A stretch of 64,000 nt of DNA, taken from the NCBI GenBank assembly GCA_022710975.1, contig JAKLGA010000009.1:181547-245546 (forward strand), written 5' to 3'. The translations under genes were made by a program, and so were the position numbers. The DNA comes from Myxococcota bacterium (lineage in GTDB: Bacteria; Myxococcota; B64-G9). The notes beneath the pieces are model-generated. The model searched no databases. It was not told where the DNA came from and saw nothing but the letters and a program-made list of their open reading frames with translations. Of this stretch, positions 1,270 to 62,055 are shown piece by piece (position 1 is the first letter of the stretch; the number at the start of each line of letters is the position of its first letter).

Positions 1270-1378
1270 GCCCGGCCCACCCCCCTGGCCGCCCTCCCCG
1301 GGGGAGGGTGGGCGCTCCGCCCCGTTTCTGCTAGAATCCTCTCGACTCTCCGGTGGACCCGGACCCTTGGAGGTGACC

Positions 1379-12477: not shown

Positions 12478-13377
12478 TGGACGGGGCCGAGGGCACCGCC
12501 CGGGTGCTGGCGGAGCGCAACCCGCCCACCCGGCGGGTGCCGTGCCTGGTGGTGCTCACGGGCCGGGAGGCCGGGCGGGTGCTGGCCATCGCGCGCGGCG
12601 AGCACATCCTCGGCCGGGGGCCGGGCGCCAGTCTGCGCCTGGAGGATCCGGCCATCTCCCGGCGGCACGCCCGGTTGATCGCCCGCGCCAGCCGGCTCGA
12701 GGCCGAGGATCTGGGCAGCACCAACGGGCTGTGGTGGAACGGGCAGCGGGTGCCGCGGGCCGCGCTGCTGGACGGAGACCGGCTGCAGCTCGGGGACTGC
12801 CGGCTGGCCGTGCGCTGGAGCGGCGCGGACGAGGGCCGCCTGTGGCGGCAGCTCTACCTGCGCGCCACGCGGGACGCCCTGACCGGCCTGCACAACCGCC
12901 CCAGCCTCGAGGAGCGCCTGGCCCGCGAGCTGGAGCGCCACGGGCGCTACCGGCGCGGGCTGGCGCTGCTGGTGCTCGACCTCGATCGCTTCAAGAGCCT
13001 GAACGACGCGCACGGCCACGCGGCCGGAGACGCCGTGCTGCGGGCGACGGGTCAGGTGCTGCGCGCGCAGCTGCGCGCCTCCGATCTGGCCGCGCGGGTG
13101 GGGGGCGAGGAGTTCGTGGTGCTGCTACCGGAGTGCGATCCGGCCCAGGCCCGCGAGGCGGCCGAGAAGCTGCGCCGGGAGCTGGCCGGCCTGGAGGTGG
13201 CCGGTCCGGGGGGAGCGCGCCTGAGGGTGACCGCCTCCGTGGGGGTGGCGCTGGCCGGCCCGGCCGCGGACAGCCCCGCCGCCCTGCTGGCCAGGGCGGA
13301 CGCGGCCTGCTACCGGGCCAAGCAGGGCGGCCGGGATCGGGTCTGCTGCGCCCCGCCCGCGGGCGGCGGGGAGCCGG

Positions 13378-13388
<11 letters not shown>
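12477..13388 (+). CDS. FHA domain-GGDEF diguanylate cyclase, with the active site GGEEF and the RxxD I-site intact
   Basis: Its ATG shares 1 nt with the recA TGA (TGATG). N-terminal FHA-like region (VLAIARGEHILGRGPGASLRLEDPAISRRHARL...STNGLWWNG). GGDEF domain with RASD-LAAR-V-GGEEF. Confidence 0.85.
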
Positions 13389-15099
<1,711 letters not shown>

Positions 15100-15215
15100 G
15101 CGCGCTCACCTCGCGGGAGGGCGACCCTGCCGGCCTGCCCACCCAGCCATGGGATGGTGCGGATTATCGGGTCCTGGACCGGGGGTGTCAACCCGGGCGG
15201 TCCGCCCGGCCGACC

Positions 15216-39700: not shown

Positions 39701-42700
39701 TCAGCTGCAGTAGCCGTACTCCCAGGTGTTGTAGTATTCCCAGCAGCCGTACACGTACGAGTAGCACTCCGTGCCGCAGACGTACTGGCCGGAGCTCGTG
39801 TCGCACTCGCAGATCTGGTCGTAGTCGCAGTCCGCCAGGCCAGCGGGGCACTGGCACACCCCGCCCACGCAGATCTGGTTGTAGGAGCACAGCGGGCTGC
39901 CGGTGCAGCCGCCCACGGAGCAGTGGTCGCTTATCGTGCAGGCGTCGCCGTCGTCGCAGGGGGAGGCGTTGGGGGGGTTGGCGCAGCCGCCGCCGGCCGG
40001 CCAGCACTCGTCGTCGGTGCAGGGGTTGCCGTCGTCGCAGCTCAGCTTCGAGCCGCTCTGGCAGCAGGCCTCGCCCGCGGCGCCGTTGCAGGTGTCGCCC
40101 GCGGTGCAGGCGTCGCCGTCGGAGCAGGCGGCGGTGCTGGGCACGTAGCTGCAGCCCGAGCCGTCGTTGCAGTAGTCGTCCGAGCAGGGGTTGCCGTCGT
40201 CGCAGCTCGCGAGCAGGGCGCCGCCGCTGCAGGAGGTGCCCTGGCAGGTCTGCGCGTACCAGGCCAGACCGCTGCAGTAGGTCGAGCCGCACGGGAGGCC
40301 GTCGCCCGCCGCCGGGTAGCTGCAGCCGGCGCCCCCGTCGCAGCTGTCCGCGGTGCAGGGGTTGGGGTCGCCGCAGACCTGGATGATCTCGCTCCCGCCG
40401 CACTGCCCGCTCTGGCAGGTCTGGCGGCGCCACTCCAGCCCGCTGCAGGAGCGCGCTCCGCACTCCATCCCGTCGCTCACCGGGGGATGGACACAGCCTG
40501 AGCCCGGGTCGCACACGTCGCTGGTGCAGGGGTTCCAGTCCTCGCAGTCCGGCGCCACGCCGGCGACGCAGCTCGGGCTCTCGCACCGCTCCGGCCCGTT
40601 GCAGGCGTTGCCGTCGTCGCATTGCCAGTCCGAGGTGCAGGACTGGCAGACGGTGTCCGCACCATCGACGGCCCCGTCGCAGTCGTTGTCCAGCCCGTCC
40701 GCGCAGGTGGCCGAGCCCAGCGGTCCCTCGGTCGCTCCCGGGTGGATGGTGTTGTTCTGGTCATCGCAGTCCTGGCCGCAGGGCGGCGGGGCGTGGCCGT
40801 CGGAGTCGGCGTCGATGGCCTGGCCGGCGCAGGTCCCGCCGGCGCAGGCGTCGCCGCTGGTGCAGGCGTCGAGGTCGTCGCACGGCGCCGTGTTGTGGCT
40901 GTGCGTGCAGCCGTTCGCGTCGCAGCCGTCGTCGGTGCAGGGATCGCCGTCGTCGCAGGCGCTCGCATCCGGGCTGAAGACGCAGCCCGCGCCCTGGTCG
41001 CAGGTGTCGAGGGTGCAGGGGTCGCCGTCGTCGCAGGTCCGCGGCGTGCCCTGGCAGCTCGCGCCGACGCAGGTGTCGCCCTCGGTGCAGGCGTTGCCGT
41101 CGTCGCAGCCCCCGCCGGTGGAGACGTGGGAGCAGCCCTGCTGGGGATCGCAGAGATCGTCGGTGCAGGGGTTGCCGTCGTCGCAGCGCTCCAGGCACGA
41201 GCGGCAGGCCTGCGGGGAGCCCAGCGCGGTTTCGCAGCCCGGGCTGGCGTCGCAGTCGCCCTAGCCGGGCTCGCAGGCGCAGGCGCTGAGCTGGCAGGTC
41301 GCGCGCGAGCCGCAGACCCGCTCGCAGGAGCCGCAGTGCTGCGGGTCGTTGCTCAGATCGACGCAGGCGGTGCCGCAGCAGAAGCTGGCCTGGGTCCCGG
41401 GGCAGTCCGGCCCCGTGCCGCCGCAGGCGCAGGTCGCTCCGGTGCAGAGCTCGCCGCTGTCGCAGGTGGTGCCGTTGCAGGCCTGGCCGTTGCAGAGGCC
41501 GCCCTCGCAGCCGTAGGGGCAGTCCTCGGGGACCTCCGTGTACTGGCAGACGCCGTCCGCGCACTGGCCGGGGACCTCGAAGCGGACGCGCGCGTCGCCG
41601 CGGCACTCGGCCGGCGGCGGCTGGTCGCAGCCCTGGAGCTGTCCGTGGCACTCCTCGGCCTGGCAGACATCGCCCTGGGTGCAGGCGTCCCCGTCCGTGC
41701 AATCCTGGCCCCCGGGCGCCCAGGCGGGCTGCAGCGCGGCCGGATCGAACAGGCAGCGGAAGGTGCCCCAGGCGCACTGACGCGCCTGGCACTGGAGGGC
41801 CTCGGTGCAGATTTCACGCGGGCAGCACAGGCCATCCTCGCAGCGCTGCCAGTCCGCGCACTCCACACCCACGCAGAGCCTGGGCGCGCACACCCCCCCG
41901 GCGCACACCTCGCCCGCGCCGCAGGGCGTCGCCCCGCAGGCCAGCGGGTAGCAGGCGCCGGCCGCGCACTCCTCGCCCGAGGCGCAGGTCACCTGGGCGC
42001 ACGAACGCGGGACGCAGGCGCCCTCGAAACAGACCTCGAGGCCTTCGACGCAGTCCAGCTCCGGGCAGTCCGCCTCCAGGCACCAGCCGTTGGCGCATTC
42101 GAGGGCGCCGCAGTCGACCTGGCCGCAGCTGCGCTGGACGCAGGCGCCGTCCACGCAGATCTCGTCGTGGCCGCTGCAGAGCTCCTCGGTGCACTCGCTC
42201 GGGTAGCAGCGACCGCCGCTGCAGACCTGGCCGGTCGGGCAGACCACCTCAGCGCACGAGCGATCGCGGCACTCGTCCTCGATGCACACCTCGCCGTAGC
42301 CGGCGCACAGCCTGGTGGGGCAGTCCCTGGGGTAGCACCTGCCCGCGGCGCAGACCTGGCCGGTCGGGCACTGGACCGCGAGGCAGGAGGCCGGGGTGCA
42401 ATCCTCCTGCACGCACACCTCGCCCAGCCCGGGGCAGTTGCGCCAGTCGCAGGCCGACGGGTAGCAGTGCCCGTTGGCGCAGCCCTCGCCCGGGGGGCAC
42501 TCCACCCACAGGCAGGCCACCTCCTGGCAGGTCTCTCCGAGGCAGACGTGGCCGGGCGGGCAGCTCCGATCCGTGCAGCTCGTGGGCAGGCACTCGCCCC
42601 GGACCACGATCCCGTCCGGGCAGCTCCCGATCTCGCCGGAGTCGCAGCCGGCCGGACCCAGCACCAGGGACAGGCACGCGACCGCGAGCATGACGCGCAG

Positions 42701-42706
42701 TGCCAT
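39701..42706 (-). pseudogene. Cysteine-rich repeat lipoprotein, paralog of 42829..47589. It is interrupted by an in-frame amber codon at 41261-41263 and is otherwise a continuous frame of about 1000 codons.
   Basis: The same frame (coordinates congruent mod 3) runs on both sides of the TAG. ...CACEPG*GDCDASPGCETALGS aligns to the paralog's ...GCQPGFGDCTLDPGCETTLGS, with the TAG at the F position. There are no ATG/GTG/TTG codons between the TAG and 40558, which is why the ORF table splits the gene. GAGGAG RBS before the second ATG (MALRVMLAVACLSLVLGPAGC signal). Confidence 0.6.
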
Positions 42707-42828
42707 CGCTCCGCTCCTCGTCTGCATGACGACGGGGTCATTCTAGCCCAGATCGGCGGAATCCGCGATGCGAGGGCAGGAGCCAGGCCCGGAGCCAGGC
42801 CCGGCGGCGGTCCCGGGCGAACCGCGCC

Positions 42829-45800
42829 TCAGTAGTAGCAGGTGATGTAGCCGCTGCAGCCCGGGTAGTAGTACTCGTCGTAGCAGCAGTAGTAGTAGTT
42901 CGTGTCGCACTCGCAGATCTGGTCGTAGTCGCAGTCCTCGAGGCCGGCCGGGCACTGGCACACCCCGCCCACGCAGATCTGGTTGTAGGAGCACAGCGGG
43001 CTGCCGGTGCAGTTGCCCCCGGAGCAGTAGTCGCCGGTGGTGCAAGGGTCGCCGTCGTCGCACGGACCGGGCTTGGCGGGGTAGGCGCAGCCGGTGGCCG
43101 GGTAGCAGTCGTCGTAGGTGCAGATGTTCCCGTCGTTGCAGGGCGGCGTCACGTTGGGGTCGAACTGCGGGTGGCAGCAGGCCTCGCCCTGGGCGCCATT
43201 GCAGTAGTCGTTGGCCCCGGTGCAGGCGTCGCCGTCGGAACAGGGGTTGGTGTTGGGCACGTAGCTGCAGCCCGAGCCGCCGTTGCAGTAGTCGGTGGAG
43301 CACACGTTGGCGTCGTTGCAGTTCTGGATGAGCGCGCTCGACGAGCAGGCGCCCGACGTGCAGGTCTGGCGGCGCCACTCCAGGCCGCTGCAGTAGCGCG
43401 AGCCGCACTCGGTGCCGTTGGCGACGTTCGCGTTCGTGCAGCCGCTGGCGGCCGCGCAGGAGTCGTTGGTGCACTGCTGGCTGTCGTTACAGTTCTGGAT
43501 GAGCGCGCTCGACGAGCAGGCGCCCGACGTGCAGGTCTGGCGGCGCCACTCCAGGGCGTTGCAGTAGCGCGAGCCGCACTCGGTGCCGTTGGCGACGTTC
43601 GCGTTCGTGCAGCCGCTGGCGGCCGCGCAGGAGTCGCTGGTGCACTCGATGCCGTCGTTGCAGTTCTGCAGCCCCATGTCGCCGGAGCAGGTGCCGCTCT
43701 GGCAGGTGTGGGCGTACCACGCCAGGCCGATGCAGTAGCGCGCGCCGCACTCGGTACCGTTGGCGACGTTCGCGTTCGTGCAGCCGCTGGCGGCCGCGCA
43801 GGAGTCGTTGGTGCACTGCTGGCCGTCGTTGCAGTTCTGCACCAGGGCGTTGCCGCTGCAGGCGCCGCTCACGCAGGACTGCATGCGCCACTCCAGGCCG
43901 TTGCAGTAGCGCGAGCCGCACTCGGTGCCGTTGGAGGCGTTGGGGTTGGAGCAGCCGCTGGCGGCGGCGCACGAGTCGGTGGTGCACTGGTTGGCGTCGT
44001 TGCAGTTCTGCTGCAGCGCGCTCGACGAGCAGGCGCCGGACAGGCAGGTCTGGCGGCGCCACTCGAGGCCGTTGCAGAAGCGCGCGCCGCACTCGATGCC
44101 GTTGGCCACCGCGACGTTGGAACAGCCGCTGGCCGCGTTGCAGGTGTCGCTGGTGCACTCCTGGCCGTCGTTGCAGTTCTGCTGCAGCGCGGAGCCCGAG
44201 CAGGAGCCGGACTGGCAGGTCTGGCGGCGCCACTCGAGCGAGCTGCAGAAACGCGCGCCGCACTCGATGCCGTTGGCCACCGCGACGTTGGAGCAGCCGC
44301 TGGCCGCGTTGCAGGTGTCGCTGGTGCACTCCTGGCCGTCGTTGCAGTTCTGCTGCAGCGCGGAGCCCGAGCAGGAGCCGGACTGGCAGGTGTGGCGGCG
44401 CCACTCGAGGGAGCTGCAGTAGCGCGCGCCGCACTCGATGCCGTTGGCCACCGCGACGTTGGTGCAGCCGCTGGCGGCGTTGCAGGAGTCGCTGGTGCAG
44501 TCCTCGATGTCGTTGCAGTTCTGTTGGAGCGCGTTGCCCGTGCAGGCGCCGGACTGGCAGGTCTGCCGGCGCCACTCCAGGCCGTTGCAGTAACGCGCGC
44601 CGCACTCGGTGCCGTTGGCGACCGCCGAGTTGGTGCAGCCGCTGGCGGCCGCGCAGGCGTCGCTGGTGCACGCCTGGCCGTCGTTGCAGTCCTGGGCGAC
44701 GGCGGTGCCCGAGCAGGTGCCCGACTGGCAGGTCTGCATGCGCCACTCCAGGCCGTTGCAGGAGCGCGAGCCGCACTCGGTGCCGTTGGGGAAGCTCGGG
44801 TGGCTGCAGCCCGTGGCGGCCGAGCAGGCGTCGTTGGTGCACTGGTTGGCGTCCGCGCAGTTCTCGAGCAGGCTGTTGCCGGTGCACTGACCCGCCTGGC
44901 AGGTCGGCACCCGCCACTCGAGCGCGTTGCATACCCGCGCGCCGCACTCGGTGCCGTTGGCCAGGTTCACGTGCTGGCAGCCCAGGGCCTGATCGCAGGA
45001 GTCCGTGGTGCAAGGGTTGCCGTCGTCGCAGTCGAGCGCTGTGCCCGAGGTGCAGTTGGGCGGGTTGCAGCCCTCGACGCCGTTGCAGGCGTTGCCGTCG
45101 TCGCACTGCTCGGGCAGGGTGCAGCTCTGGCAGGTCGAGTCCGCGCCGTCGGTGGTGCCGTCGCAGTCGTTGTCCAGGCCGTCCGAGCAGACCTGCGCGC
45201 CGAGCGGGCCCTCTGGCATGCCGGGGTTCACGTTCGGGTTGTCGTCCAGGCAGTCGCCGCCGCAGGGCGGCGGCTGGTGGTCGTCGCCGTCGGCGTCGAT
45301 GAGGGTGCCCGCGCAGGCGCCGCCCGCGCAGGTGTCCCCCGCGGTGCAGGCGTCGCCGTCGTTGCAGGGGGCGGTGTTGTTGGCGTGGGTGCAGCCGCTG
45401 GCCGAATTGCAGCCGTCCGTGGTGCAGGGGTTGCCGTCGTCGCAGTTCCTGGGCGCGCCGCTGCAGGCGGCGCCGGAGCACGCGTCGTTGATGGTGCACT
45501 CGTCGGCGTCGTCGCAGGCGTCGGCGTTCGGGTTGTAGGTGCAGCCCGTGGCCGGGTCGCAGCCGTCGTCGGTGCAGTCGTTGCCGTCCGTGCAGGTCCG
45601 GGGCGCCCCGGCCTGGCACGCGCCGCCGGAGCAGGCGTCGCCCTGGGTGCACTCGTTGCTGTCGCTGCACGGACCCGTGTTGTTCGCGTGGGTGCACTCG
45701 CCGGTGCCCGGCTCGCAGCCGTCGTCGGTGCACGGGTTGCCGTCGTCGCAGCTCGAGCCGCCGGTGAACACGCACACGCCGCCCTGGCAGTGGTCGCCCG

Positions 45801-47589
45801 TGGTGCAGCCGTCGTTGTCGCTGCAGGCGGCCGCGTCGTCGTTCACGTGCTGGCACTGGCCGCTGGCCGGGTTGCAGTCGTCCTGGGTGCAGGCGTTGAG
45901 ATCGTTGCAGTCCTTGGGAACTCCCTGGCAGGTGCCGCCCGAGCACGTGTCGCTGTCGGTGCAGGCGCTGGCGTCGTCGCAGGCCCCGGTGTTGGGGGCG
46001 TGCTGGCAGCCCAGCTGCGCGTCGCAGCTGTCGTCGGTGCAGGGGTTGTTGTCCTCGCAGCTCTCCTGGCAATCGCGGCAGAAGGTCAGGCTGCCGAGCG
46101 TGGTCTCGCAGCCCGGGTCGAGGGTGCAGTCGCCGAAGCCGGGCTGGCACCCGCAGATCTGGCCAGCGCAGCTCCCGTTCGGGCCGCACAGGTTGTCGCA
46201 GCCGCCGCAGTTCTGGCTGTCCTGGGTCAGGTCAACGCAGACCGCGCCGCAGCAGAAGCTGGAGGTGTCGCCGGCGCAGTCCGGGCCGGTGCCGCCGCAG
46301 CGGCACTCCGTCCCCACGCACTGCTCGTTGGGAGAGCACTGGATCCCGTTGCACATCGCGCCGATGCACTGCCCGTCGGTGCAACCCTCGGGGCAGTCCT
46401 CGACCACCTCGGCGTACTGGCAGCTCCCGTCCACGCACGTCCCCGGGGAGCGGAAGCTCACGCGCTGGTCGCCCCGGCACTCGGGCTGCGGCGGCTGGTT
46501 GCAGGCCAGCGGCGTCCCCCGGCACTCATCCTGGGCGCACACGTCTCCCTGGGTGCAGCCGTCGCTGTCGGTGCAGTCCTCCCCCTCGGTCGCCCACACG
46601 GTCTGCTGCGTGGCCGGGTCGTACTGGCAGCGGAAGTTCCCCCAGCCGCAGGCGCTCGTGCTGCACTGCAACCCCGGGGTGCAGGTCTCAGGTGGGCAGC
46701 AGGCGCCGGCCTCGCATCGCTGCCAGGTGGCGCAGTCCACCCCCACGCACAGGCGCAGCTCGCAGGCTCCGCCGGCGCAGACCTCGCCCGACGGGCAGGG
46801 GGTGTCTCCGCAGGTGAGCGGGTAGCAGGCACCAGCCGCGCACGCCTCGTCGGCGCCGCAGGTCACGTGGGCGCACGAGCGGGGGACACACGTCCCCTCG
46901 AAGCAGATCTCCAGCCCGTCCAGGCAGTCCTGGCCGGACTCGGTACAGTCCGCCGGGAAGCACCAGCCGTTGGCGCACTGCAGGTCGCCGCAGTCGACGT
47001 TGGCGCAGGTGCGCTCGGAGCACACGCCGTCGACGCACACCTCGTTGTAGCCGTGGCAGTTCTCCAGGCCGCACTCGGTCGGGTAGCAGCGCCCGCCGGA
47101 GCAGGTCTGCCCGGCGGGGCAGGTCACCCCGGCGCAGGAGCGTTCCTGGCACTCGTCCTCGATGCACACCTCGCCGTAGCCGGCGCACACCTTGGTGGGG
47201 CAGTCCTTGGGGTAGCATCGGCCCGCGGCGCAGACCTGGCCGGCCGGGCACTGGACCGCGATGCAGGAGGCCGGGGTGCACTCCTCCTCCACGCACACCT
47301 CGCCCAGGCCGGGGCAGTTGCGCCAGTTGCAGGCCGAGGGGTAGCAGACCCCATTGGCGCAGCCCTCTCCCGGGGGACACTCCACCCACAGGCAGGCCAC
47401 TTCCTGGCAGATCCCGCCCAGGCAGACCGAGCCTGGCGGGCAGGTCCGATCCTCGCACGTCGTGGGCAGGCACTGCCCGTTGACCACCACGCCGTCAGGG
47501 CACTGGGACGAGATGGTGCCGGGATCGCAGCTGCCCAGCCCGAGGCACGGCGCGAGGAACATGAGGTAGCGAAGGCGGGACTGGCTCAT
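42829..47589 (-). CDS. Giant cysteine-rich repeat lipoprotein (1586 aa): a Cys-rich N-terminal domain, TIGR02232-type DGNxCT repeats, about ten 56-aa tandem repeats, and a Tyr-rich C-terminus
   Basis: GAGGAG RBS before the ATG. Signal MFLAPCLGLGSC. Repeat unit NGTECGSRYCNGLEWRRQTCQSGACSGNALQQNCNDGQQCTNDSCAAASGCTNANVA. C-terminus CECDTNYYYCCYDEYYYPGCSGYITCYY. Confidence 0.8.
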   Translation of the reverse strand: MSQSRLRYLMFLAPCLGLGSCDPGTISSQCPDGVVVNGQCLPTTCEDRTCPPGSVCLGGICQEVACLWVECPPGEGCANGVCYPSACNWRNCPGLGEVCVEEECTPASCIAVQCPAGQVCAAGRCYPKDCPTKVCAGYGEVCIEDECQERSCAGVTCPAGQTCSGGRCYPTECGLENCHGYNEVCVDGVCSERTCANVDCGDLQCANGWCFPADCTESGQDCLDGLEICFEGTCVPRSCAHVTCGADEACAAGACYPLTCGDTPCPSGEVCAGGACELRLCVGVDCATWQRCEAGACCPPETCTPGLQCSTSACGWGNFRCQYDPATQQTVWATEGEDCTDSDGCTQGDVCAQDECRGTPLACNQPPQPECRGDQRVSFRSPGTCVDGSCQYAEVVEDCPEGCTDGQCIGAMCNGIQCSPNEQCVGTECRCGGTGPDCAGDTSSFCCGAVCVDLTQDSQNCGGCDNLCGPNGSCAGQICGCQPGFGDCTLDPGCETTLGSLTFCRDCQESCEDNNPCTDDSCDAQLGCQHAPNTGACDDASACTDSDTCSGGTCQGVPKDCNDLNACTQDDCNPASGQCQHVNDDAAACSDNDGCTTGDHCQGGVCVFTGGSSCDDGNPCTDDGCEPGTGECTHANNTGPCSDSNECTQGDACSGGACQAGAPRTCTDGNDCTDDGCDPATGCTYNPNADACDDADECTINDACSGAACSGAPRNCDDGNPCTTDGCNSASGCTHANNTAPCNDGDACTAGDTCAGGACAGTLIDADGDDHQPPPCGGDCLDDNPNVNPGMPEGPLGAQVCSDGLDNDCDGTTDGADSTCQSCTLPEQCDDGNACNGVEGCNPPNCTSGTALDCDDGNPCTTDSCDQALGCQHVNLANGTECGARVCNALEWRVPTCQAGQCTGNSLLENCADANQCTNDACSAATGCSHPSFPNGTECGSRSCNGLEWRMQTCQSGTCSGTAVAQDCNDGQACTSDACAAASGCTNSAVANGTECGARYCNGLEWRRQTCQSGACTGNALQQNCNDIEDCTSDSCNAASGCTNVAVANGIECGARYCSSLEWRRHTCQSGSCSGSALQQNCNDGQECTSDTCNAASGCSNVAVANGIECGARFCSSLEWRRQTCQSGSCSGSALQQNCNDGQECTSDTCNAASGCSNVAVANGIECGARFCNGLEWRRQTCLSGACSSSALQQNCNDANQCTTDSCAAASGCSNPNASNGTECGSRYCNGLEWRMQSCVSGACSGNALVQNCNDGQQCTNDSCAAASGCTNANVANGTECGARYCIGLAWYAHTCQSGTCSGDMGLQNCNDGIECTSDSCAAASGCTNANVANGTECGSRYCNALEWRRQTCTSGACSSSALIQNCNDSQQCTNDSCAAASGCTNANVANGTECGSRYCSGLEWRRQTCTSGACSSSALIQNCNDANVCSTDYCNGGSGCSYVPNTNPCSDGDACTGANDYCNGAQGEACCHPQFDPNVTPPCNDGNICTYDDCYPATGCAYPAKPGPCDDGDPCTTGDYCSGGNCTGSPLCSYNQICVGGVCQCPAGLEDCDYDQICECDTNYYYCCYDEYYYPGCSGYITCYY
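43250..44950. repeat. Tandem array of about ten 168-bp near-identical repeats inside the CDS 42829..47589
   Basis: Blocks such as GCACTCGGTGCCGTTGGCGACGTTCGCGTTCGTGCAGCCGCTGGCGGCCGCGCAGGAGTCGTTGGTGCACTGCTGGC recur with few substitutions. Each encodes a 56-aa Cys-rich module. Confidence 0.8.
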
Positions 47590-47757
47590 GTCCGGTCTCC
47601 TCTCGGCATACCGATCTGCTGGGGAGATTCTAACCTGTTTACGAGCATTTGAACAGCGCGGCCGGGCAGCTCGGCCGGGGAGCGCGCGCGCCGCCTTCGC
47701 CCTTGAACCAGCCTGGGGCTCGGGCTATCCTCAGAGGCCGATTCCCTGGAGGTCTGC

Positions 47758-52038: not shown

Positions 52039-55000
52039 TCAGCGCGCCCTGCGCCGGAGCACCAGCGCCAGGGCCAGCCCCAGGCCGAGCAGGCCGGCCT
52101 CCAGGGGCGAGCTCGAGGCTCCGCACACGCAGCCGCCGCCGCTCACGTGTGTCAGGTCCGGATCGCTGGCGCCGCCGTCGCCCCCGTCCTGTCCGGGCTG
52201 GCACACCCCGGCCTGGCATGTCCCGTCCGGACAGGCCGTCCCCTCCGGGAGCGCTGCGTGCCGGCAGGCGCCGTCGGCCGCTTCGCAGCCGTCCTCGGTG
52301 CACGGGTTGCCGTCGTCGCAGGCGAGCGGGGTCCCGGCGCACACGCCGGCCAGGCAGGCGTCGGCCGAGGTGCAGCCGTCGCCGTCGTCGCAGGGGGTGG
52401 CGTCGGGCCGGTCCACCAGGGAGCAGGCGCCCGTCGCCGGGTCGCAGGCCGCCTGGCGGCAGTCCGTGTCGGCGGTGGGATCGCACACCACCACGGTCGC
52501 GGGATCCACCACGCAGGCGGGGCTCTGGCAGACCAGGGTGCCGTTGCACAGGTCCGCGTCCTCGAAGGGCGCGCAGTCCGCGTCCGCGCTGCACTGGCAG
52601 GTGTTGGCTCCGGGCTGGCAGGCGCCGGCCGCGCAGGTGTCGCCCCCGGTGCAGGGGTTGCCGTCGTCGCAGGGGGCGCTGTTCGGGGAGAAGGCGCAGC
52701 CCGCGGCGGGCTCGCAGCCGTCGTCGGTGCAGGGGTTGGCGTCGTCGCAGACGAGCGGGGCACCCACCTGGCAGCCGAGGAGCGGATCGCAGCTCTCCAC
52801 GCCGTTGCAGGTGTCGCCATCGTCGCAGGCGAGCGGGGTGCCGGTGCACACGCCGGCCAGGCAGGCGTCGGCCGAGGTGCAGCCGTCGCCGTCGTCGCAG
52901 GGGGTGGCGTCGGGCCGGTCCACCAGGGAGCAGGCGCCCGTCGCCGGGTCGCAGGCCGCCTGGCGGCAGTCCGTGTCGGCGGTGGGATCGCACACCACCA
53001 CGGTCGCGGGATCCACCACGCAGGCGGGGCTCTGGCAGACCAGGGTGCCGTTGCACAGGTCCGCGTCCTCGAAGGGCGCGCAGTCCGCGTCCGCGCTGCA
53101 CTGGCAGGTGTTGGCTCCGGGCTGGCAGGCGCCGGCCGCGCAGGTGTCGCCCCCGGTGCAGGGGTTGCCGTCGTCGCAGGGGGCGCTGTTCGGGGAGAAG
53201 GCGCAGCCCGCGGCGGGCTCGCAGCCGTCGTCGGTGCAGGGGTTGGCGTCGTCGCAGACGAGCGGGGTGCCCACCTGGCAGCCGAGGAGCGGGTCGCAGC
53301 TCTCGGCGCCGGTGCAGGCGTCGCCGTCGTCGCAGGCGAGCGGGGTGCCGGCCACGCAGCCCGAGGCCGGATCGCAGCCCTCGAGGCCGTCGCAGACGTC
53401 GCCGTCGTCGCAGATGAGCGGGGTGCCCGGGACGCAGCCCGAGGCCGGGTCGCAGCCCTCGAGGCCGTCGCAGGCGTCGCCGTCGTCGCAGACGAGCGGG
53501 GTGCCCGGCTGGCAGGCGCCGCCGGCGCACGCCTCGTCGCCGTTGCACGTGTCGCCGTCCGGGCAGGGGAGCGTGTTGGGCTCGAAGGCGCAGCCCGTGG
53601 CCGGGACGCAGGAGTCCGTGGTGCAGACGTTGCCGTCGTCGCAGGAGAGCGGCGTGCCGGCCTGGCAGCTCCCGGCGGCGCAGGTCTCGTCGCCGTTGCA
53701 GGCGTTGCCGTCGTCGCAGTCCAGGTCCTGCGCGCACACCGAGCACGAGGGCTGCTCCGCGTCCACGTTCCCGTCGCAGTCGTTGTCCAGGCCGTCGCTG
53801 CAGGTCGGATCGCCCAGGCCGCCCTCGAACATCCCGGGGTTGACGCTGACGTTGCCGTCGTCGCAGTCCACGCCGCCGCAGGCGAAGGGCGCGTAGCCGT
53901 CGTCGTCCGCGTCCAGCGGCGCGCCCTGGCAGGCGCCGAGCGCGCAGGTGTCGCCCTCGGAGCAGGGGTCGCCGTCGTCGCATGGATCGGCGTTGCCGGT
54001 GTAAGCGCAGCCCGTGGCCGGGGCGCACGAGTCCGTGGTGCAGGCGTTGCCGTCGTCGCAGGCGAGCGGCGTGCCCGGCTGGCAGCTCCCGCCGGCGCAG
54101 ACCTCGGCGCCGTTGCAGAGGTCGCCGTCCGCGCAGGAGAGGGTGTTGTCCACTAGCACGCAGCCCGTGAACGGGTCGCACGAGTCCGTGGTGCAGAGGT
54201 TGCCGTCGTCGCAGGCGAGCGGTGTGCCGGCCTGGCAGGTGCCGGCGGAGCAGGCCTCGTCCCCGTTGCAGAGATCGCCGTCCGCGCAGGAGAGGGTGTT
54301 GGGGGCATAGCTGCAGCCCGTGGCCGGGGCGCAGGAGTCCGTGGTGCAGGAGTTGCCGTCGTCGCAGACGAGCGGGGTGCCGGCCTGGCAGGTGCCGGCC
54401 GCGCAGGCCTCGCTGCCGTTGCACTGATCGCCGTCCGAGCAGGAGACCGTGTTGGGGACATTGCTGCAGCCCGTGGCCGGGGCGCAGGAGTCCGAGGTGC
54501 AGACGTTGCCGTCATTGCAGCTCAGCGGTGTGCCGGCCTGGCAGGTGCCGGCGGAGCAGGCCTCGTCCCCGTTGCAGAGATCGCCGTCCGCGCAGGAGAG
54601 GGTGTTGGGGGCATAGCTGCAGCCCGTGGCCGGGGCGCAGGAGTCCGTGGTGCAGGAGTTGCCGTCGTCGCAGACCAGCGGGGCGCCGGCCTGGCACGAG
54701 CCCGCGGAGCAGGCCTCGTTGCCGTTGCAGAGGTCGCCGTCCGAGCAGGGCAGCGCGTTGTTGGCGAAGGCGCAGCCTGTGGCCGGGACGCAGGAGTCGG
54801 TGGTGCAGACGTTGCCGTCGTTGCAGGTGAGCGGCGTGCCGGCCTGGCAGGTGCCGCCGGAGCAGACCTCGGCGCCATCGCAGAGGTCGCCGTCCGCGCA
54901 GGAGGCCGTGTTGGGGACGAAGCTGCAGCCCGTGGCCGGGACGCAGGAGTCCGAGGTGCAGACGTTGCCGTCGTTGCAGGTCAGGGGGGTGCCGGCCTGG

Positions 55001-58000
55001 CAGGCGCCGCCGGCGCAGACCTCGCTGCCGTTGCACAAGTTGCCATCCGCGCAGGAGGCCGTGTTGGGGACGAAGCTGCAGCCCGTGGCCGGGACGCAGG
55101 AGTCGGTGGTGCAGACGTTGCCGTCGCTGCAGGTCAGGGGGGTGCCGGCCTGGCAGGCGCCGCCGGCGCAGACCTCGCTGCCGTTGCACAAGTTGCCGTC
55201 CGCGCACGAGGCCGTGTTGGGGACGAAGCTGCAGCCCGTGGCCGGGACGCAGGAGTCCGTGGTGCAGACGTTGCCGTCGTTGCAGACGAGCGGGGTGCCA
55301 GACTGGCAGGTGCCGCCGGAGCAGACCTCGTCGCCGTCGCAGAGGTCGGCGTCCGCGCAGGAGGCCGTGTTGGGGACGAAGCTGCAGCCCGTGGCCGGGA
55401 CGCAGGAGTCCGTGGTGCAGACGTTGCCGTCGTTGCAGGTGAGCGGCGTGCCGACCTGGCAGGTGCCGCCGGAGCAGACCTCGGCGCCATCGCAGAGGTC
55501 GCCGTCCGCGCAGGAGGCCGTGTTGGGGGCAAAGCTGCAGCCCGTGGCCGGGACGCAGGAGTCGGTGGTGCAGACGTTCCCATCGTTGCAGGTCAGGGGA
55601 GTGCCGGCCTGGCACGCGCCCGCGGCGCAGACCTCGCTGCCGTTGCACAGGTTGCCGTCGGGGCAGGGCAGGGTGTTGTTGGCGTAGGCGCAGCCCGTGG
55701 CCGGGTTGCAGGAGTCGGTGGTGCAGAGGTTGCCGTCGTCGCAGGTGAGCGGGGTGCCGGCCTCGCACGAGCCGGCGGCGCAGATCTCGTCGCCGTTGCA
55801 GGCGTTGCCGTCCGAGCAGTCGCCGTTGCCCGAGCAGACCGAGCACGACGGCTGCTCCAGGTCGGTGTTGCCGTCGCAGTCGTTGTCCAGCCCGTCGGCG
55901 CACGTGGGATCGCCCAGCCCACCCTCGAAGGCGCCGGGGTTGACGGCGGGGTCGGTGTCGTCGCAGTCCGTGCCGAGGCAGGCCAGCGGCACGTAGGTGT
56001 CGCCGTCCGCGTCCAGCGGGTCGCCCTGGCAGGTGCCGGCCGCGCAGGCGTCGGCCATGGTGCAATCGTCGGCGTCGTCGCAGGGGCCGGTGTTGGCGGG
56101 GTAGGCGCAGCCCGTGGCCGGGACGCAGGAGTCCATGGTGCAGACGTTGCCGTCGTTGCAGACGAGCGGGGTGCCGGCCTGGCACGAGCCGCCGGAGCAT
56201 GCCTCAGCGCCGTCGCAGAGGTCGCCGTCCGGGCAGGGCAGGGTGTTGTTGGCGTAGCTGCAGCCCGTGGCCGGGACGCAGGAGTCCGTGGTGCAGACGT
56301 TGCCGTCGTTGCAGACGAGCGGGGTGCCGGCCTGGCACGAGCCCGCGGAGCAGGCCTCGTTCCCGTTGCACAGGTCGCCGTCCGGGCAGGGCAGGGTGTT
56401 GTTCGCGTTGCTGCAGCCCGTGGCCGGGACGCAGGAGTCCGTGGTGCAGAGGTTGCCGTCGTTGCAGACGAGCGGGGTGCCGGCCTGGCAGGAGCCCGCG
56501 GCGCAGACCTCGTTCCCGTTGCACAGGTTCCCGTCTGGGCAGGGGACGGTGTTGTTGACGTTGCTGCAGCCCGTGGCCGGGACGCAGGAGTCCGTGGTGC
56601 AGAGGTTGCCGTCGTTGCAGGTGAGCGGCGTGCCGGCCTGGCACGAGCCCGCGGAGCAGGCCTCGTTGCCGTTGCAGAGGTCGCCGTCCGGGCAGGGCAG
56701 CGCGTTGTTGGCGTAGGCGCAGCCCGTGGCCGGGACGCAGGAGTCCGTGGTGCAGAGGTTGCCGTCGTTGCAGGTGAGCGGCGTGCCGGCCTGGCAGGAG
56801 CCCGCGGAGCAGACCTCGTTCCCGTTGCACAGGTTCCCGTCTGGGCAGGGGACGGTGTTGTTGACGTTGCTGCAGCCCGTGGCCGGGACGCAGGAGTCCG
56901 TGGTGCAGACGTTCCCGTCGTTGCAGACGAGCGGGGTGCCGGCCTGGCAGGAGCCCGCGGAGCAGACCTCGTTGCCGTTGCAGAGGTTGCCGTCCGGGCA
57001 GGGCAGGGTGTTGTTCGCGGTGCTGCAGCCCGTGGCCGGGACGCAGGAGTCCGTGGTGCAGAGGTTGCCGTCGTCGCAGACCAGCGGGGTGCCGGCCTGG
57101 CAGGAGCCCGCGGCGCAGACCTCGTTCCCGTTGCACAGGTTGCCGTCTGGGCAGGGGACGGTGTTGTTGACGTTGCTGCAGCCCGTGGCCGGGACGCAGG
57201 AGTCCGTGGTGCAGACGTTGCCGTCGTTGCAGACGAGCGGGGTGCCGGCCTGGCAGGAGCCCGCGGAGCAGACCTCGTTCCCGTTGCAGAGGTTGCCGTC
57301 CGGGCAGGGCAGGGTGTTGTTCGCGGTGCTGCAGCCCGTGGCCGGGACGCAGGAGTCCGTGGTGCAGAGGTTGCCGTCGTTGCAGACCAGCGGGGTGCCG
57401 GCCTGGCAGGAGCCCGCGGAGCAGACCTCGTTCCCGTTGCACAGGTTGCCGTCCGGGCAGGGCAGGGTGTTGTTCGCGGTGCTGCAGCCCGTGGCCGGGA
57501 CGCAGGAGTCCGTGGTGCAGAGGTTGCCGTCGTCGCAGACCAGCGGGGTGCCGGCCTGGCAGGAGCCCGCGGCGCAGACCTCGTTCCCGTTGCACAGGTT
57601 GCCGTCTGGGCAGGGGACGGTGTTGTTGACGTTGCTGCAGCCCGTGGCCGGGACGCAGGAGTCCGTGGTGCAGACGTTGCCGTCGTTGCAGACGAGCGGG
57701 GTGCCGGCCTGGCAGGAGCCCGCGGAGCAGACCTCGTTCCCGTTGCAGAGGTTGCCGTCCGGGCAGGGCAGGGTGTTGTTCGCGGTGCTGCAGCCCGTGG
57801 CCGGGACGCAGGAGTCCGTGGTGCAGACGTTCCCGTCGTTGCAGACCAGCGGGGTGCCGGCCTGGCAGGAGCCCGCGGCGCAGACCTCGTTCCCGTTGCA
57901 CAGGTTCCCGTCCGGGCAGGGCAGGGTGTTGGTGACGTTGCTGCAGCCCGTGGCCGGGACGCAGGAGTCCGTGGTGCAGAGGTTGCCGTCGTCGCAGACC

Positions 58001-60759
58001 AGCGGGGTGCCGGGCAGGCAGCTGCCTGTGGCGACCACGCAGGTCTCCGCACCGTTGCAGGCGTCCCCGTCGTCGCAGTCCGGATCGCCGGTACAGGTGG
58101 CCGGCTCCTTGATCCAGATCTGGAGGTTGTCCAGCCGGCAGCCGGCCTGGTTGACGGTGTAGTCGGTGTACGAGCGGAAGCGGAAGTAGACGGTGTCGTA
58201 GCCGATCAGCGGGGTGAGGTTCACCTCCTGCGCGCCGCTGGCGGTGCCGGTGAAGCCGGTGATGATCCGCCACTGGACGTTGTCCAGGCTGTACTCCCAG
58301 ATCAACCAGTCATAGTTCTGCTCGTAGGCGCAGGACACCAGGTCGAAGCTGATCGAGGCGGACACCGCGTCGCTCAGATCGACCCCGGCCGAGAAGGTGG
58401 CCGAGGAGCGGTTGTTGTCTCGGTAGTTGGCCCCCGGGCTGTCGTCCAGCACCCCGCCCTGCACGGCCCAGGTGGGGGTCAGGGTCCAGTTGGTCGCGTT
58501 GCCGAAGGTCTCGTCGACGACCAGCGTGTCGGGCGCGTCGCCGGCCGCGGTGACGAGGATGTCGTCGAGGTACCACCCGTCCCGGCGGGTGCTGGCGTTC
58601 GACGACAGCCAGAAACGGAGCTGGACCCGCTGGCCGGTCGCGAGGATCGTGCCGGCCCACTCGTGCCAGGTGGTGTTGGTGCCGGTGACCTGATCCACGC
58701 TGGTCCAGGCCGACCAGGTGGCGCCGTCGTAGGTGCGGATCTGGATCCTGCCGTAGTCCGCGTTGGCCTGCAGATCGTAGCGCTGCCAGAAACTGAGCCG
58801 GATCAGCTGATCGTTCGCCACGATCTCGGGCGAGACCAGGTAGAGGTTGGCGTTGTTCGGATAGTTGCCCCCGGGGCTGTCCGTCCAGCTGTGGGTCGGG
58901 CTGTGGCTCTGAGCGGTGACCTGGCCCCAGTCTCCGGTCCAGCCGTTGAGCCCCCCCTCGACGTCGTCGTCGAGCAGGACGGTCTCGGCGGGTGTGGTGA
59001 TGACCACCACGTTCGACAGGGCGCTCCGGTTGCCGGCGTTGTCCACCACCTCGAGGCCGAAGCGGTAGGTCGTCCCCGGCGAGAGGCCGCCGATGGTGAA
59101 GTTGTCCACCTGCCCGACCGGGGACGGGGTCCACAGCCCGAGGATCGGCTCGGCCGTGGCGTAGTCGAAGGTGGCGCCCTCGGCCACCCGCAGGTCGTAG
59201 TAGTTGGCCTGCCCCGCGTTGCCGTCGTCGCCCGTGGCGGTCGTGCGCAGGAGCACCCGCCGGCTCTGGGTGAGGTGCACGCCGAGGGTGGGCGTGGCCG
59301 GGGCGGTCGCGTCTTCCTCGACCAGGTTGAAGACGTTGAGGTGCCCACCGGTGACCGACAGGCCGGCCAGCGAGGCCCAGCGCTGGCTGCGATCCATGAG
59401 CCGCTGGCGGATGGCGCTCACCCGCTGGACCTGGGTCATGCCCGCCCAGCCGGTGATCAGGTTCGGCGCCAGGCCGTACACGATGGCCGCCGCGCCCGAG
59501 GCGTGGGGCGCGGCCATCGAGGTCCCGCTCCACGACAGCCAGACGCTGTTGGCGGTGTCCCACATGCAGATCTGGTAGAGGCTCTCGGGGTAGCCGGTCA
59601 GGATGTTCGGGGTGGTGGAGACGATCTCCTCGCCCGGGGCGTAGAGGTGGACCGTGTTCAGGCCGTAGTTGGAGAACAGCGAGCCGTCGCCCCAGGCGCT
59701 GGAGGCGCCGACCGAGATGACGTTCTCGTAGGGGTAGTTGCCCGGGTAGGAGGGCGTGGTGTCGTTGTCGGTGCCGTCGTTGCCCGACGCGACCACGAAG
59801 ACCACACCCTGGTCACGCGCCGCGGCGATCGCCGCGGCCAGGCTCGCGTCGTAGGCGCCGCCACCCCAGCTGTTGTTGAGCACCTTGGCGCCGTTGGTGA
59901 CGCCGTAGTTGATCGCCGCGATGGCGTTGGCGGTGCTGCCGCCGGTCGGCCCGATGAACCGCAGCGCCATGATCTGGACGTTGGTCGTGGTGCCGTAGAC
60001 GCCGATCGAGTTGTGGATCGCGGCGATGGCCCCGGCCACGTGGGTGCCGTGGCTGTCCTCGTCCATCGGGTTCGTGTCGTTCGAGTAGAAGTCGTAGCCG
60101 AGGCCCGGCCACATCACCGCGGCCAGGTCCGGGTGGGTGTAGTCCACGCCGGAGTCGATGACCCCGACGATGATCGTGCTCGGGGTGAAGCCGCGCCGGG
60201 CGATCTCGTCGTTGGCCTCCGGGGTGTCCATGTCCATGTCGGCCACGCGCGGATCCGGGTTGTACAGGCCGGCGTTCCCCTGGAAGGGCGCGTTGCCGCC
60301 CAGGTTCCGGTGGGCCCAGGCCATGTTGAAGTAGGGATCGCTGGGGACCTCGCTGGGGAAGTAGAGGTAGTTGGGCTGGGCGGCCTCCACCCCGGGTTGC
60401 TTGGTCAGCTCCGCGATGGCCTGCTCGACGTCCACGCCGCTGGTCAGGCGCAGCAGGTAGGTGCGGTTGAGCGTGGATTCCGGCGCGGACTCGAACCGCA
60501 GACGTCGCTCGACGCGGTGGCCCAGCGCCCCGGCCATGGCCTGCGCGGCACCCTCCTCCTGCCCTGCTCGCAGGGTGACCAGGACCTCGTCCACCACCCA
60601 GGCCGCCTTCGTTCCGGCGCGCCGCGGCGAGGGCTTCTGGACGGCCAGCTCCTCCGTGGAGACGCCGGGGCCCGGCTCCCCCGCGCCGTCGCACGACGGG
60701 CCGACCAGGGCGAGCAGGACGAGGGCCGCGGACGGGATCGCGATGGCTTTCGAGGGCAT
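52039..60759 (-). CDS. Giant (2906 aa) secreted subtilisin-like S8 peptidase, then an FN3-like domain, two jelly-roll-like domains, about 50 tandem 36-aa cysteine-rich repeats, and a MYXO-CTERM tail
   Basis: GGAGG RBS 6 nt before the ATG at 60759. Signal [18 protein letters not shown]8 catalytic blocks [13 protein letters not shown] (Asp), DSHGTHVAG (His), NNSWGG (oxyanion Asn) and [11 protein letters not shown] (Ser). Repeats are of the [51 protein letters not shown] type. C-terminus [33 protein letters not shown]. Confidence 0.85.
52150..58040. repeat. Tandem array of about 50 repeats of 108 bp (36 aa) inside the S8 giant gene; many adjacent copies are identical at the nucleotide level
   Basis: The unit ...GGTGCAGACGTTGCCGTCGTTGCAGACGAGCGGGGTGCCGGCCTGGCAGGAGCCCGCGGAGCAGACCTCGTTCCCGTTGCAGAGGTTGCCGTCCGGGCAGGGCAGGGTGTTGTTCGCGGTGCTGCAGCCCGTGGCCGGGACGCAGGAGTCCGT recurs almost exactly between about 56.2 and 58.0 kb. 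More diverged copies run down to about 52.2 kb. Confidence 0.85.
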
Positions 60760-60879
60760 GCAGAACCTCCGGCGCTCGAGGCATTCCACCCGACGACCCC
60801 CTGAGGCTAACCCATGGCGATCTTTGTCACCAGGGGGAAGGGTGTGCAGCGGTATCGGGCTGTGGTAGGTCTGGTGTCC

Positions 60880-62055
60880 ATGGACGCGCCGCGCCTGAAT
60901 GCGTACCAGAGGGACGCCCACCTGACCTCGCTGCGCGCCCGCGCGGTCGCCTGCGCGCCCGCGCAGGGCGGCTTCCTGGTCGAGCTCGAGGACACGCTCT
61001 TCTACCCCGAGGGCGGGGGTCAGCCCGCCGACGCCGGCACCCTCGACGGGCAGGCGCTGCTCGGCCTGCAGAAGACGGCCGACGGGCGGGTGCTGCACCT
61101 CCTGGCCGAGGCCGTCGAGGTCGGGCGGGAGGTGGCGCTGGAGCTCGACTGGGCGCGGCGCCTCGATCACATGCAGCAGCACTCCGCCCAGCACATCCTG
61201 ACCGCGCTGGCGCTGGCCGAGTTCGGCTGGCCCACCACGGCCTTCCACCTGGGGCCGGACCGCTCCGACCTCGAGCTGGGTCAGGACGGGCTCGACCTGG
61301 CGGCGCTGGCCGGCCTCCAGGCGCGGGCGAACGAGATCGTCCGCCAGGCCCGCCCGGTGCGCACCCGCTGGGTGAGCGCGGAGGAGTTCCAGACCCTGCC
61401 GGTGCGCTCCCGCATCCTGCCCGAGGGATTCGCCGGCCCCTACCGGCTGGTGGAGATCGAGGGCGTGGATCTCAACACCTGCGGCGGGACCCACGTGGCC
61501 TCCACCGCCGAGCTGCAGGCCGTCGCCCTCACGGGCACCGAGCGGCTGAGGGGGGGCACGCGGGTGTTCTTCCTGGCCGGTGGGCGGGTGCTGCGCGAGC
61601 TCGGCCAGGCGGTCGCGCACCAGCGCGCGCTCGGGGAGCTGCTGTCCTGCCCGCCGGCGGATCACCCGGCGGCCGTCTCGCGCCTGCAGGCCGAGCTCCG
61701 CGAGGCGGGCGTCCAGCGCCGCCAGCTCCAGTCCGAGCTGGCCCTGCACCTGGCGCGGGAGCTGTCCCGCGGCCCGCAGCCGGCCAGCCTGCACCGGCCC
61801 GAGGCCGACATGGCCTGCCTGCAGGCCGTGGCCCGGGCCTTCCTGGAGCTGTGTCCGCAGGGGCTCGCCCTGCTGACGGGCAAGGGCCTGTTCGTGCTGG
61901 CCGGCCCGGCGGACAGGCTGAAGGCCCTCGGTCCCCAGGTGGCCGCGGCGCTCGGCGGCCGGGGCGGGGGCGGGGCGGGGCTCTACCAGGGCAAGGCCGC
62001 GGAGCTCTCCCCGGCCGCCCGCGAGCGCGCGCTGGCGACGCTCAGGTCGAGCTGA
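60880..62055 (+). CDS. AlaX-L type alanyl-tRNA editing protein (tRNA_SAD domain)
   Basis: FYPEGGGQPADAG at the N-terminus, then HSAQHIL and CGGTHV zinc-binding motifs. Start is chosen at MDAPRLNAYQRD by family alignment. The ORF table begins at 60814 with no RBS, so the start is uncertain. Confidence 0.7.
   Translation: MDAPRLNAYQRDAHLTSLRARAVACAPAQGGFLVELEDTLFYPEGGGQPADAGTLDGQALLGLQKTADGRVLHLLAEAVEVGREVALELDWARRLDHMQQHSAQHILTALALAEFGWPTTAFHLGPDRSDLELGQDGLDLAALAGLQARANEIVRQARPVRTRWVSAEEFQTLPVRSRILPEGFAGPYRLVEIEGVDLNTCGGTHVASTAELQAVALTGTERLRGGTRVFFLAGGRVLRELGQAVAHQRALGELLSCPPADHPAAVSRLQAELREAGVQRRQLQSELALHLARELSRGPQPASLHRPEADMACLQAVARAFLELCPQGLALLTGKGLFVLAGPADRLKALGPQVAAALGGRGGGGAGLYQGKAAELSPAARERALATLRSS

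Follow-up and report, generated by a model that had tools for sequence, protein, structure and literature searches.

Probable gene conversion at both ends of a tandem pair of genes for putative modular cysteine-rich lipoproteins in a Myxococcota bacterium

A 64,000-nucleotide stretch of Myxococcota DNA (contig JAKLGA010000009.1), here called the window, has a G+C content of about 71% and carries two adjacent reading frames on its minus strand, gene A (42829..47589) and, directly downstream, gene B (39701..42727). Both frames were found where a first-pass annotation had placed two adjacent minus-strand genes, at 39701-47589, and cysteine makes up 15-16% of the residues in both. Comparison with homologues from related organisms supports the view that conversion homogenised A and B over two segments after they had diverged, close to the 5' end (about 290 nt) and close to the 3' end (about 150 nt). 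Both tracts are now about 9% diverged, so that the events are not recent. The explanation that fits best overall, and that we consider likely, is that A and B are tandem paralogues encoding modular Cys-rich lipoproteins, with converted ends, a changing repeat array and a predicted role at the cell surface.

High-identity tracts at the two ends of genes A and B

A and B have a common N-terminal region of about 485 amino acids (aa 1-485), close to the roughly 480 residues first proposed, with 67% amino acid and 76% nucleotide identity. A core block of about 300 nt within it had been described as about 90% identical. Once the register is corrected to an offset of 4880 nt, A 47160-47460 and B 42280-42580 are 89.7% identical; the coordinates given earlier for B were about 20 nt off, and the literal offset of 4860 yields an identity of 32%. 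When the block was aligned by codons (A aa 48-147), its identity was 91% for nucleotides and 87% for amino acids, compared to 72.5% and 62% over the remainder of the common N-terminal region (aa 148-485), where a protein identity of roughly 70% had been expected. The excess of nucleotide identity in the block over the rest, on which the proposal of gene conversion had been made to depend, is therefore present. In sliding windows, the nucleotide identity of the block was 0.87-0.94 and that of its third positions 0.85-0.97, whereas elsewhere the values were 0.6-0.8 and 0.55-0.8. With the Nei-Gojobori method, the synonymous (dS) and nonsynonymous (dN) divergence between A and B was 0.19 and 0.07 in the block and 0.48 and 0.32 outside. 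Windows of at least 90% identity delimit conversion tract 1 to 47125..47418 in A (aa 58-155) and 42245..42538 in B, both on the minus strand and 91% identical. When the codon columns were permuted with all sites included, the observed maximal segment was reached in none of 5000 permutations.

Homologues from two related metagenomic organisms were used as third and fourth taxa. Gene C is located on L004, an 8.2-kb metagenome contig whose flanking SpeA and SDR genes are about 80-84% identical in nucleotides to those of the window, and its 5' end is cut by the contig end at the position of A aa 37. Gene D is intact (1543 aa) and lies on L006, a 218-kb contig with a SpeA protein that is 90% identical. 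The flanks of both contigs are syntenic with the window. Inside the block, informative sites supporting AB, AC and BC were counted as 40:11:11 (third positions 25:1:8), whereas outside the block the counts were 65:60:69 (third positions 29:33:26; Fisher p = 2.6e-5). An unbiased scan placed the AB segment at A aa 85-148, and the observed value was reached in 7 of 20000 permutations, or 56 of 20000 when third positions were used. The four-taxon quartets in the block favoured AB|CD by 11:1:2. Gene C retains the amino acids of the block, yet at third positions C and D reach an identity of no more than about 0.60-0.67 to A and B, compared to 0.83-0.97 between A and B. The dS values in the block were 0.21 for A-B, 0.70 for A-C and 0.45 for B-C.

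The C-terminal module SPLCSYNQICVGGVCQCPAGLxDCDYDQICECDT is found in both genes and is covered by a second tract. Conversion tract 2 extends over 42901..43053 in A (aa 1513-1563) and 39791..39949 in B, both on the minus strand and 90-91% identical, and windows of at least 90% place it at A 42895-43036 and B 39791-39932. The identity is 0.90 between A and B, whereas A-C, A-D, B-C, B-D and every other pair show 0.65-0.67. In the tract, the sites supporting AB, AC and BC numbered 47:7:5; the flank upstream of it gave 17:26:19 and the tail 7:11:19 (p = 8e-9). In the segment scan none of 20000 permutations reached the observed value, and the quartets were 15:2:2 with AB|CD first. The signal of tract 2 is stronger than that of tract 1. 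A stretch of 80 nt at A 43215-43294 is also highly identical, but it is kept in all relatives and is therefore uninformative. The two genes had been thought to reconverge on a common C-terminal module and a Tyr-rich tail. This applies to the module; the tails are different sequences with a nucleotide identity of 0.55. A search with the C-terminal 139 residues of B matched CTDC repeats alone, over about half of the query length, and found no relatives of the module and tail beyond the group of A to D, and no further copies of tract 1 or tract 2 occur within the window. Taken together, AB-supporting sites dominate only inside the two tracts (permutation p at most 0.003). The raised identity includes synonymous sites, and the tracts are incongruent with the outgroups. 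The earlier proposal of gene conversion in the block is thus supported by the three- and four-taxon tests, which add the second tract.

Several points weigh against this reading. When A and B were compared alone, a synonymous-only maximal-segment scan did not reach significance. Conservation within the family peaks in the block, where distant homologues are 0.59 identical to A versus 0.39 elsewhere, so that purifying selection contributes to its amino acid identity. From these two results, the A-B pair alone cannot separate conversion from constraint. Taxa C and D come from phylogenetically unplaced metagenome contigs, and C is itself a mosaic of an A-like body and a B-like tail. The window matches contigs of about 319 kb from the JGI metagenomes 3300025706 and 3300010429. 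Over 39701-47589 it is base-for-base identical to two assemblies from different samples, L001 and L002, including an in-frame TAG in B, and protein A is identical on 6 metagenome contigs. A and B were invariant over all assemblies compared, with no sign of rapid switching, and diversification at the strain level was not observed. Finally, export, lipidation, disulfide bonding and surface exposure are predictions made from the sequence.

If there had been no conversion, the block and the C-terminal module would just be under stronger purifying selection, combined with codon bias. The conservation of the block, the outcome of the synonymous-only scan and the nearly exclusive use of TGC for cysteine agree with this. 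However, C and D have the same block amino acids and at third positions fall far below the A-B pair, the site patterns differ between the block and its surroundings, and in the C-terminal tract the low identity of C and D to A, B and each other points to weak constraint. Selection alone is for these reasons very improbable. We also think it rather unlikely that the tracts are remnants of a recent duplication and that the rest of A or B was overwritten from distant paralogues elsewhere. In favour of such overwriting, relatives have several dispersed copies of the family, A, B and C form a trichotomy at their N-termini outside the tracts with quartets weakly favouring AD|BC (26:16:12), and the body of A is C-like while its tail is unique. 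Against it, no paralogue that could have served as donor was found in the window, and a paralogue of the P0012 type was ruled out as a recent donor with its nucleotide identity of 68-78%. Overwriting would still mean recombination between paralogues and would differ from conversion between A and B in direction and timing alone. A chimeric or duplicated locus produced by the assembly is hardly credible. The locus is rich in repeats and a neighbouring subtilase gene differs between the assemblies within its repeats, but assemblies from different samples agree at every base of A and B, the paralogous tracts are 91% and not 100% identical, and the flanks are syntenic with L004 and L006.

Two other origins of the block were tried and rejected. 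A diversity-generating retroelement (template and variable repeats with adenine-only mismatches) was ruled out, since the 27 mismatches of the block are spread over 11 of the 12 base-change types, with the A base in gene A for 9 and in gene B for 6. A conserved RNA element was ruled out as well, since the Rfam search gave no matches and C and D do not keep the synonymous sites.

Architecture of the genes and turnover of the repeat array

Gene A is an uninterrupted open reading frame (ORF) encoding a modular lipoprotein of 1586 aa with 245 Cys (15%), and a GGAGA Shine-Dalgarno sequence is located 6 nt ahead of its ATG. The parts follow each other in the same order in each gene: signal peptide, C-x4-C rod, second Cys-rich module, Dicty_CTDC repeats, MopE-like motif, 57-aa array, and C-terminal module with an aromatic tail. 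All coordinates of A given here are on the minus strand. By direct reading of the sequence, the signal peptide and lipobox MSQSRLRYLMFLAPCLGLGS|C21 are encoded at 47527..47589. The C-x4-C array of predicted beta-hairpins (aa 30-300, 46690..47502) was recognised by its Cys spacing and by AlphaFold2 (AF2). It has a 43-aa super-repeat, and 36 of its 50 Cys-Cys intervals are exactly 5 residues long. The second Cys-rich module (aa 301-485, 46135..46689) was delimited by homologue search and AF2; its end is weakly MXAN_6577-like (NCBIfam NF041328, 24.7 bits in B, under the cutoff) and is followed by a GDCxxxPGCET linker. The Dicty_CTDC repeats (aa 510-765, 45295..46062) match PF00526 with 177.5 bits in 12 stretches (E 3e-53) and pass the gathering threshold of 27 bits. 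A MopE-like putative metal-binding motif at 45148..45255 shows a resemblance only, since an isolated 87-aa segment scored 24.8 bits against PF11617 (E = 2.5e-5) and missed the gathering threshold of 27 bits. Ten units of 57 aa (171 nt) occupy 43315..45024 according to the unit matrix and to Tandem Repeats Finder, which reported a period of 171 with 9.8 copies at 43285-44961. Further CTDC repeats lie 3' of this array, then the module SPLCSYNQICVGGVCQCPAGLEDCDYDQICECDT, and then the Tyr/Cys tail NYYYCCYDEYYYPGCSGYITCYY (42832..42900). The tail of A is derived and unlike the others: its nucleotide identity to the tails of B, C and D is 0.55-0.61, compared to 0.70-0.76 among these three. The disintegrin family (PF00200) had no match in A or B.

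The first-pass annotation had seen different numbers and different types of Cys-rich repeats in the two genes. The numbers do differ, with ten 57-aa units in A and two in B and with fewer CTDC repeats in B, whereas the types of modules and their order are the same. Gene C is collinear with the body of A without gaps (C318-1221 = A554-1457, 80-97% nucleotide identity), lacks the equivalent of A aa 350-553, ends in a tail of the B/D type and adjoins the SDR gene as B does. In the nucleotide matrix of the units, the A-C pairs were A1-C1 (87%), A2-C2 (84%), A3-C5 (91%), A7-C7/C9 (93%) and A8-C6 (88%). Lineage-specific duplications were observed for A4/5/6 (92-94%), A9/10 (95%), C7/C9 (94%) and C5/C8/C10 (89-92%). 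The two units of B are highly diverged and at most 72% identical to any other. As judged from these alignments, the 171-nt array changes by duplication and loss of units. The genes are mosaics, and their recombination history is richer than can be resolved.

In L006 a single gene stands in place of two. Gene D (12730..17361, minus strand) is the sole gene in the syntenic slot, where the order is ExbD-like, SpeA, SDR, D, GHMP kinase, DAGK-like, a 689-aa gene and DUF218. In the window, the order is ExbD-like, SpeA, SDR, B, A, DAGK-like, a 680-aa gene and DUF218, without the GHMP-kinase gene that lies between D and the DAGK-like gene in L006. Like A and B, D carries the lipobox and the N-terminal modules. 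Its CTDC and MopE-like parts, a single remnant of the 57-aa units and the C-terminal module are shared as well, and its aromatic tail is of the B/C type. Its payload is a long array matching the disintegrin loop (PF00200) in 14 stretches (E = 7e-30), with a repeat of about 29 aa, ECRAxAGxCDLAExCxGxxxxCPTDxFRP. The first-pass annotation had called for a comparison of copy number across strains. A and B did not vary among the assemblies, whereas copy number and payload do differ across related organisms.

The frame of gene B comprises 1008 codons with one in-frame TAG at 41261..41263 (codon 489, minus strand), which was found in three assemblies (the window, L001 and L002). At this position A has TTC for Phe and D also has Phe; the context reads EPG*GDC in B versus QPGFGDC in A. 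The 5' open frame at 41261..42727 (minus strand, 488 codons ending at the TAG) encodes the N-terminal modules only. A GAGGAG Shine-Dalgarno sequence precedes Met8 (42706), and the JGI gene call is 481 aa. The certain product of B is 488 aa, or more likely the 481 aa that start from Met8, so the description of both genes as giant does not apply to B. The TAG sits exactly at the end of the N-terminal modules. A functional short form of B is possible, because the family includes naturally short proteins, for example P0010 (532 aa), that stop at the equivalent module boundary.

The distal frame of B (39701..41260, minus strand) continues for 519 more codons without a stop. It encodes CTDC repeats (107 bits against PF00526 in 6 stretches, above the threshold of 27 bits), a MopE-like motif, two 57-aa units (40199-40540), the C-terminal module and a tail of the ancestral type. 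Since the frame and the Cys pattern are intact over the 519 codons, the stop is probably young. Past the TAG, the dN/dS ratios were 0.57-1.16 for pairs with B versus 0.39-0.50 for A-C, which suggests relaxed constraint on this part of B. On the plain reading, the TAG is a nonsense mutation, since TAG truly terminates other genes of the window and the window is without a tRNA gene; a full-length B would need read-through. Reassignment of TAG, or its use for pyrrolysine, was ruled out: TAG ends several other genes of the window, the G+C content at third codon positions collapses after these stops, and no tRNA genes were found in the window. Gene C also has a single in-frame TAG (L004 2306..2308), a GAG to TAG change within a 57-aa unit ('CNGL*WRR'). 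With two of four genes in a small group affected, the number is too low to see more than coincidence in this; within the window, TAG serves as an ordinary stop.

Family, predicted fold and surface role

When the N-terminal 500 aa were used as a query, 808 representative proteins were found at E <= 1e-3, and 65 of them at E <= 1e-30. The best matches were unnamed proteins of metagenome-assembled genomes (MAGs) assigned to 'Deltaproteobacteria bacterium', with at least five paralogues in the JXR96 MAG, and the closest relatives that bear a name carry the label 'Deltaproteobacteria' or Myxococcota. A scan of genome contigs gave one distant relative only, which was 30% identical. The unit at A aa 335-420 recurs up to 35 times per protein in other giant proteins. 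In the members of the family, a common start of lipobox and C-x4-C array is followed by C-terminal parts that are unrelated to each other (CTDC, Beta_helix, RCC1, DUF2341, Ig_7, EGF). One dispersed member of 722 aa, P0012 (L010 8001..10169), lies in an unrelated locus and has 57-aa units like those of A. For the N-terminal 500 aa, no Pfam family was above threshold, the PDB sequence search gave 0 hits, and no fold match was found in the PDB. With AF2, the N-terminal module was modelled as regular beta-hairpins with a mean pLDDT (predicted local distance difference test) of 81.5, reaching about 88-95 at aa 30-300 with a hairpin every ~21 aa and staying at about 90 up to aa 410. The module is thus confidently modelled and, as predicted, structurally unusual. 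Four 57-aa units gave no confident model (pLDDT 42). The family is undescribed, with a stalk that has a Cys at every fifth residue and neither a Pfam model nor a solved structural relative.

The lipobox of A (MSQSRLRYLMFLAPCLGLGS-C21, ending in CLGLGS-C21) fits PROSITE PS51257 by direct reading. A hydrophobic stretch and a Cys also start the homologues P0001, P0004, P0006, P0009, P0010, P0012, P0020, P0062 and P0063, with the consensus LxxCS and lipoboxes such as LALGC, LALAC, LLSCS, LASCS and LSACS. The signal sequence of B, LVLGPAG-C, is atypical with its Pro at -3. We propose that the proteins would be exported by the Sec pathway, lipidated at the lipobox Cys and folded into long disulfide-stapled rods. 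These would present the repeat arrays, whose copy number may set reach and valency, and may serve on the cell or in its surroundings as rods of an adhesin-like or matrix-like kind. As the comparisons show, the genes have evolved by unequal recombination in the 171-nt array and by conversion between the paralogues at their ends, an ordinary and well-documented route for genes of surface proteins. The surface reading is supported by the conservation of the lipobox, the repertoire of modules (CTDC, and disintegrin-like in D) and the analogy to TraA. The idea of a diversifying surface or adhesin family, already put forward before the comparison, gains support from the variation within the slot, the unit duplications and the varied C-terminal payloads.

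The same features could suggest a cassette system, in which B would be a partly silent donor or acceptor and the conserved ends would anchor the swap of payloads into A, as in pilE/pilS or vlsE. The two tracts do flank a divergent payload, the distal part of B is untranslated and yet keeps its frame and Cys pattern, and payloads differ in the same slot of related organisms. Opposed to this are the Shine-Dalgarno sequence, -10-like hexamer and signal peptide that B has of its own, the presence of one partner copy only, and the age of the tracts, which are about 91% and not fully identical. Moreover, A and B do not vary among the assemblies, and the two genes have not traded the payload that lies between the tracts, the B units being at most 72% identical to any A unit. 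Such a system is accordingly quite improbable, and A and B do not match a silent-cassette locus with promoterless, 5'-truncated donors and frequent recombinants in the population. It is equally doubtful that the homogenised ends are maintained as recombination anchors to swap eukaryote-like adhesion payloads (CTDC, disintegrin-like, 57-aa units) on the common, structurally new C-x4-C stalk, whether between an expressed gene and a neighbour silenced in translation or among dispersed paralogues. The invariance of A and B, the translation signals that B has of its own and the age of the tracts speak against a fast-switching contingency system. As for the chemistry of the rods, the cysteines might bind metal instead of forming disulfides, which would make the products periplasmic or extracellular metal-binding or redox proteins. 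The regular Cys at every fifth residue and the sub-threshold MopE-like motif would suit such a function. However, AF2 predicts hairpins of the EGF/TNFR cysteine-rich-domain class, and Foldseek gave weak neighbours that are without exception disulfide-rich extracellular proteins. CTDC and disintegrin modules, too, are disulfide-bonded and extracellular in the eukaryotic proteins that define them. Metal binding is therefore unlikely, and we prefer disulfide-stapled surface lipoproteins.

Conversion between paralogues in tandem surface-protein genes is a general phenomenon, known from bacterial adhesin and outer-membrane protein families. A and B resemble such systems in the short homogenised tracts within diverged tandem paralogues and in the change of repeat number by unequal recombination; they differ in that the two tracts are old (~9% diverged) and without strain-level variation. 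Protocadherin clusters are a further comparison for inter-paralogue conversion, as referenced in PMC13184517 (ref 48 therein). TraA of Myxococcus xanthus is a polymorphic cell-surface protein with Cys-rich stalk-like repeats beside a variable part (PMC13184517). A and B are similar to it in their Cys-rich repeats but lack MYXO-CTERM, a TIGR02232-type repeat hit and a PA14-like variable domain; they have an N-terminal lipobox anchor instead, and their variable part is the repeat array. The NCBIfam search gave nothing at E <= 0.01 except the weak MXAN_6577-like match, and the C-termini are aromatic and Cys-rich without a hydrophobic helix, which places A and B outside the MYXO-CTERM/TraA class.

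CTDC repeats mark the secreted matrix proteins of Dictyostelium, a variable Cys-rich family (PMC4931340). A and B are like EcmA, EcmB and PsiA in having CTDC repeats above the gathering score of PF00526 and in belonging to large variable families of Cys-rich repeats. In contrast to these, they are bacterial and anchored as lipoproteins, and CTDC is one of several modules; the Dictyostelium proteins are without the N-terminal C-x4-C rod and the 57-aa units. The 14 stretches in D that match disintegrin/ADAM loops suggest a ligand-binding payload of the adhesive type, but A and B have no such hit, and the RGD of venom disintegrins is replaced by SAG or AAG in the D repeats. Outside the family, CTDC repeats and disintegrin-like loops are known from matrix and adhesion proteins of eukaryotes. 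Should A and B prove to be adhesins of the cell surface, they would be candidate mediators of contact between cells, or between cell and matrix, in relatives of social bacteria. The locus provides a clean, statistically supported case of inter-paralogue conversion and repeat-array turnover in an uncultured lineage, and current understanding is not overturned by it.

Intergenic signals and nearby genes

The spacer between A and B (42728..42828) contains a TAGAAT -10-like hexamer and a 12-nt repeat present 2.2 times; a consensus scan found neither promoters nor terminators. The TAGAAT hexamer lies about 40 nt 5' of the start codon in both A (47620..47640, minus strand) and B (42740..42750, minus strand), and Shine-Dalgarno sequences of the GGAG type are found ahead of both genes. 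Long ORFs run across A and B on the opposite strand, for example 43171..47652 (plus strand, 1493 aa). These antisense ORFs result from the high G+C content and the codon phase. All homology and Pfam signals are on the minus strand.

A 3251-codon ORF at 52039..61794 (minus strand) encodes a giant subtilase with a Fervidolysin-type prodomain, Peptidase_S8 and 29 Dicty_CTDC stretches. The repeats of this gene hold the only differences between the window and L001 and L002, with substitutions clustered at 52476-53116 and 57127-57589; they are either real repeat polymorphism or repeat mis-assembly. Another CTDC-repeat protein of 1051 aa is encoded at 1367..4522 (plus strand; 9 stretches, E = 5e-48), which makes four CTDC-repeat genes in 64 kb. 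The gene at 30926..33079 (minus strand) encodes a 718-aa protein with a major-vault-protein shoulder (PF11978, E = 9e-31) and a sub-threshold Vault_3 match, a bacterial gene resembling that of the major vault protein.

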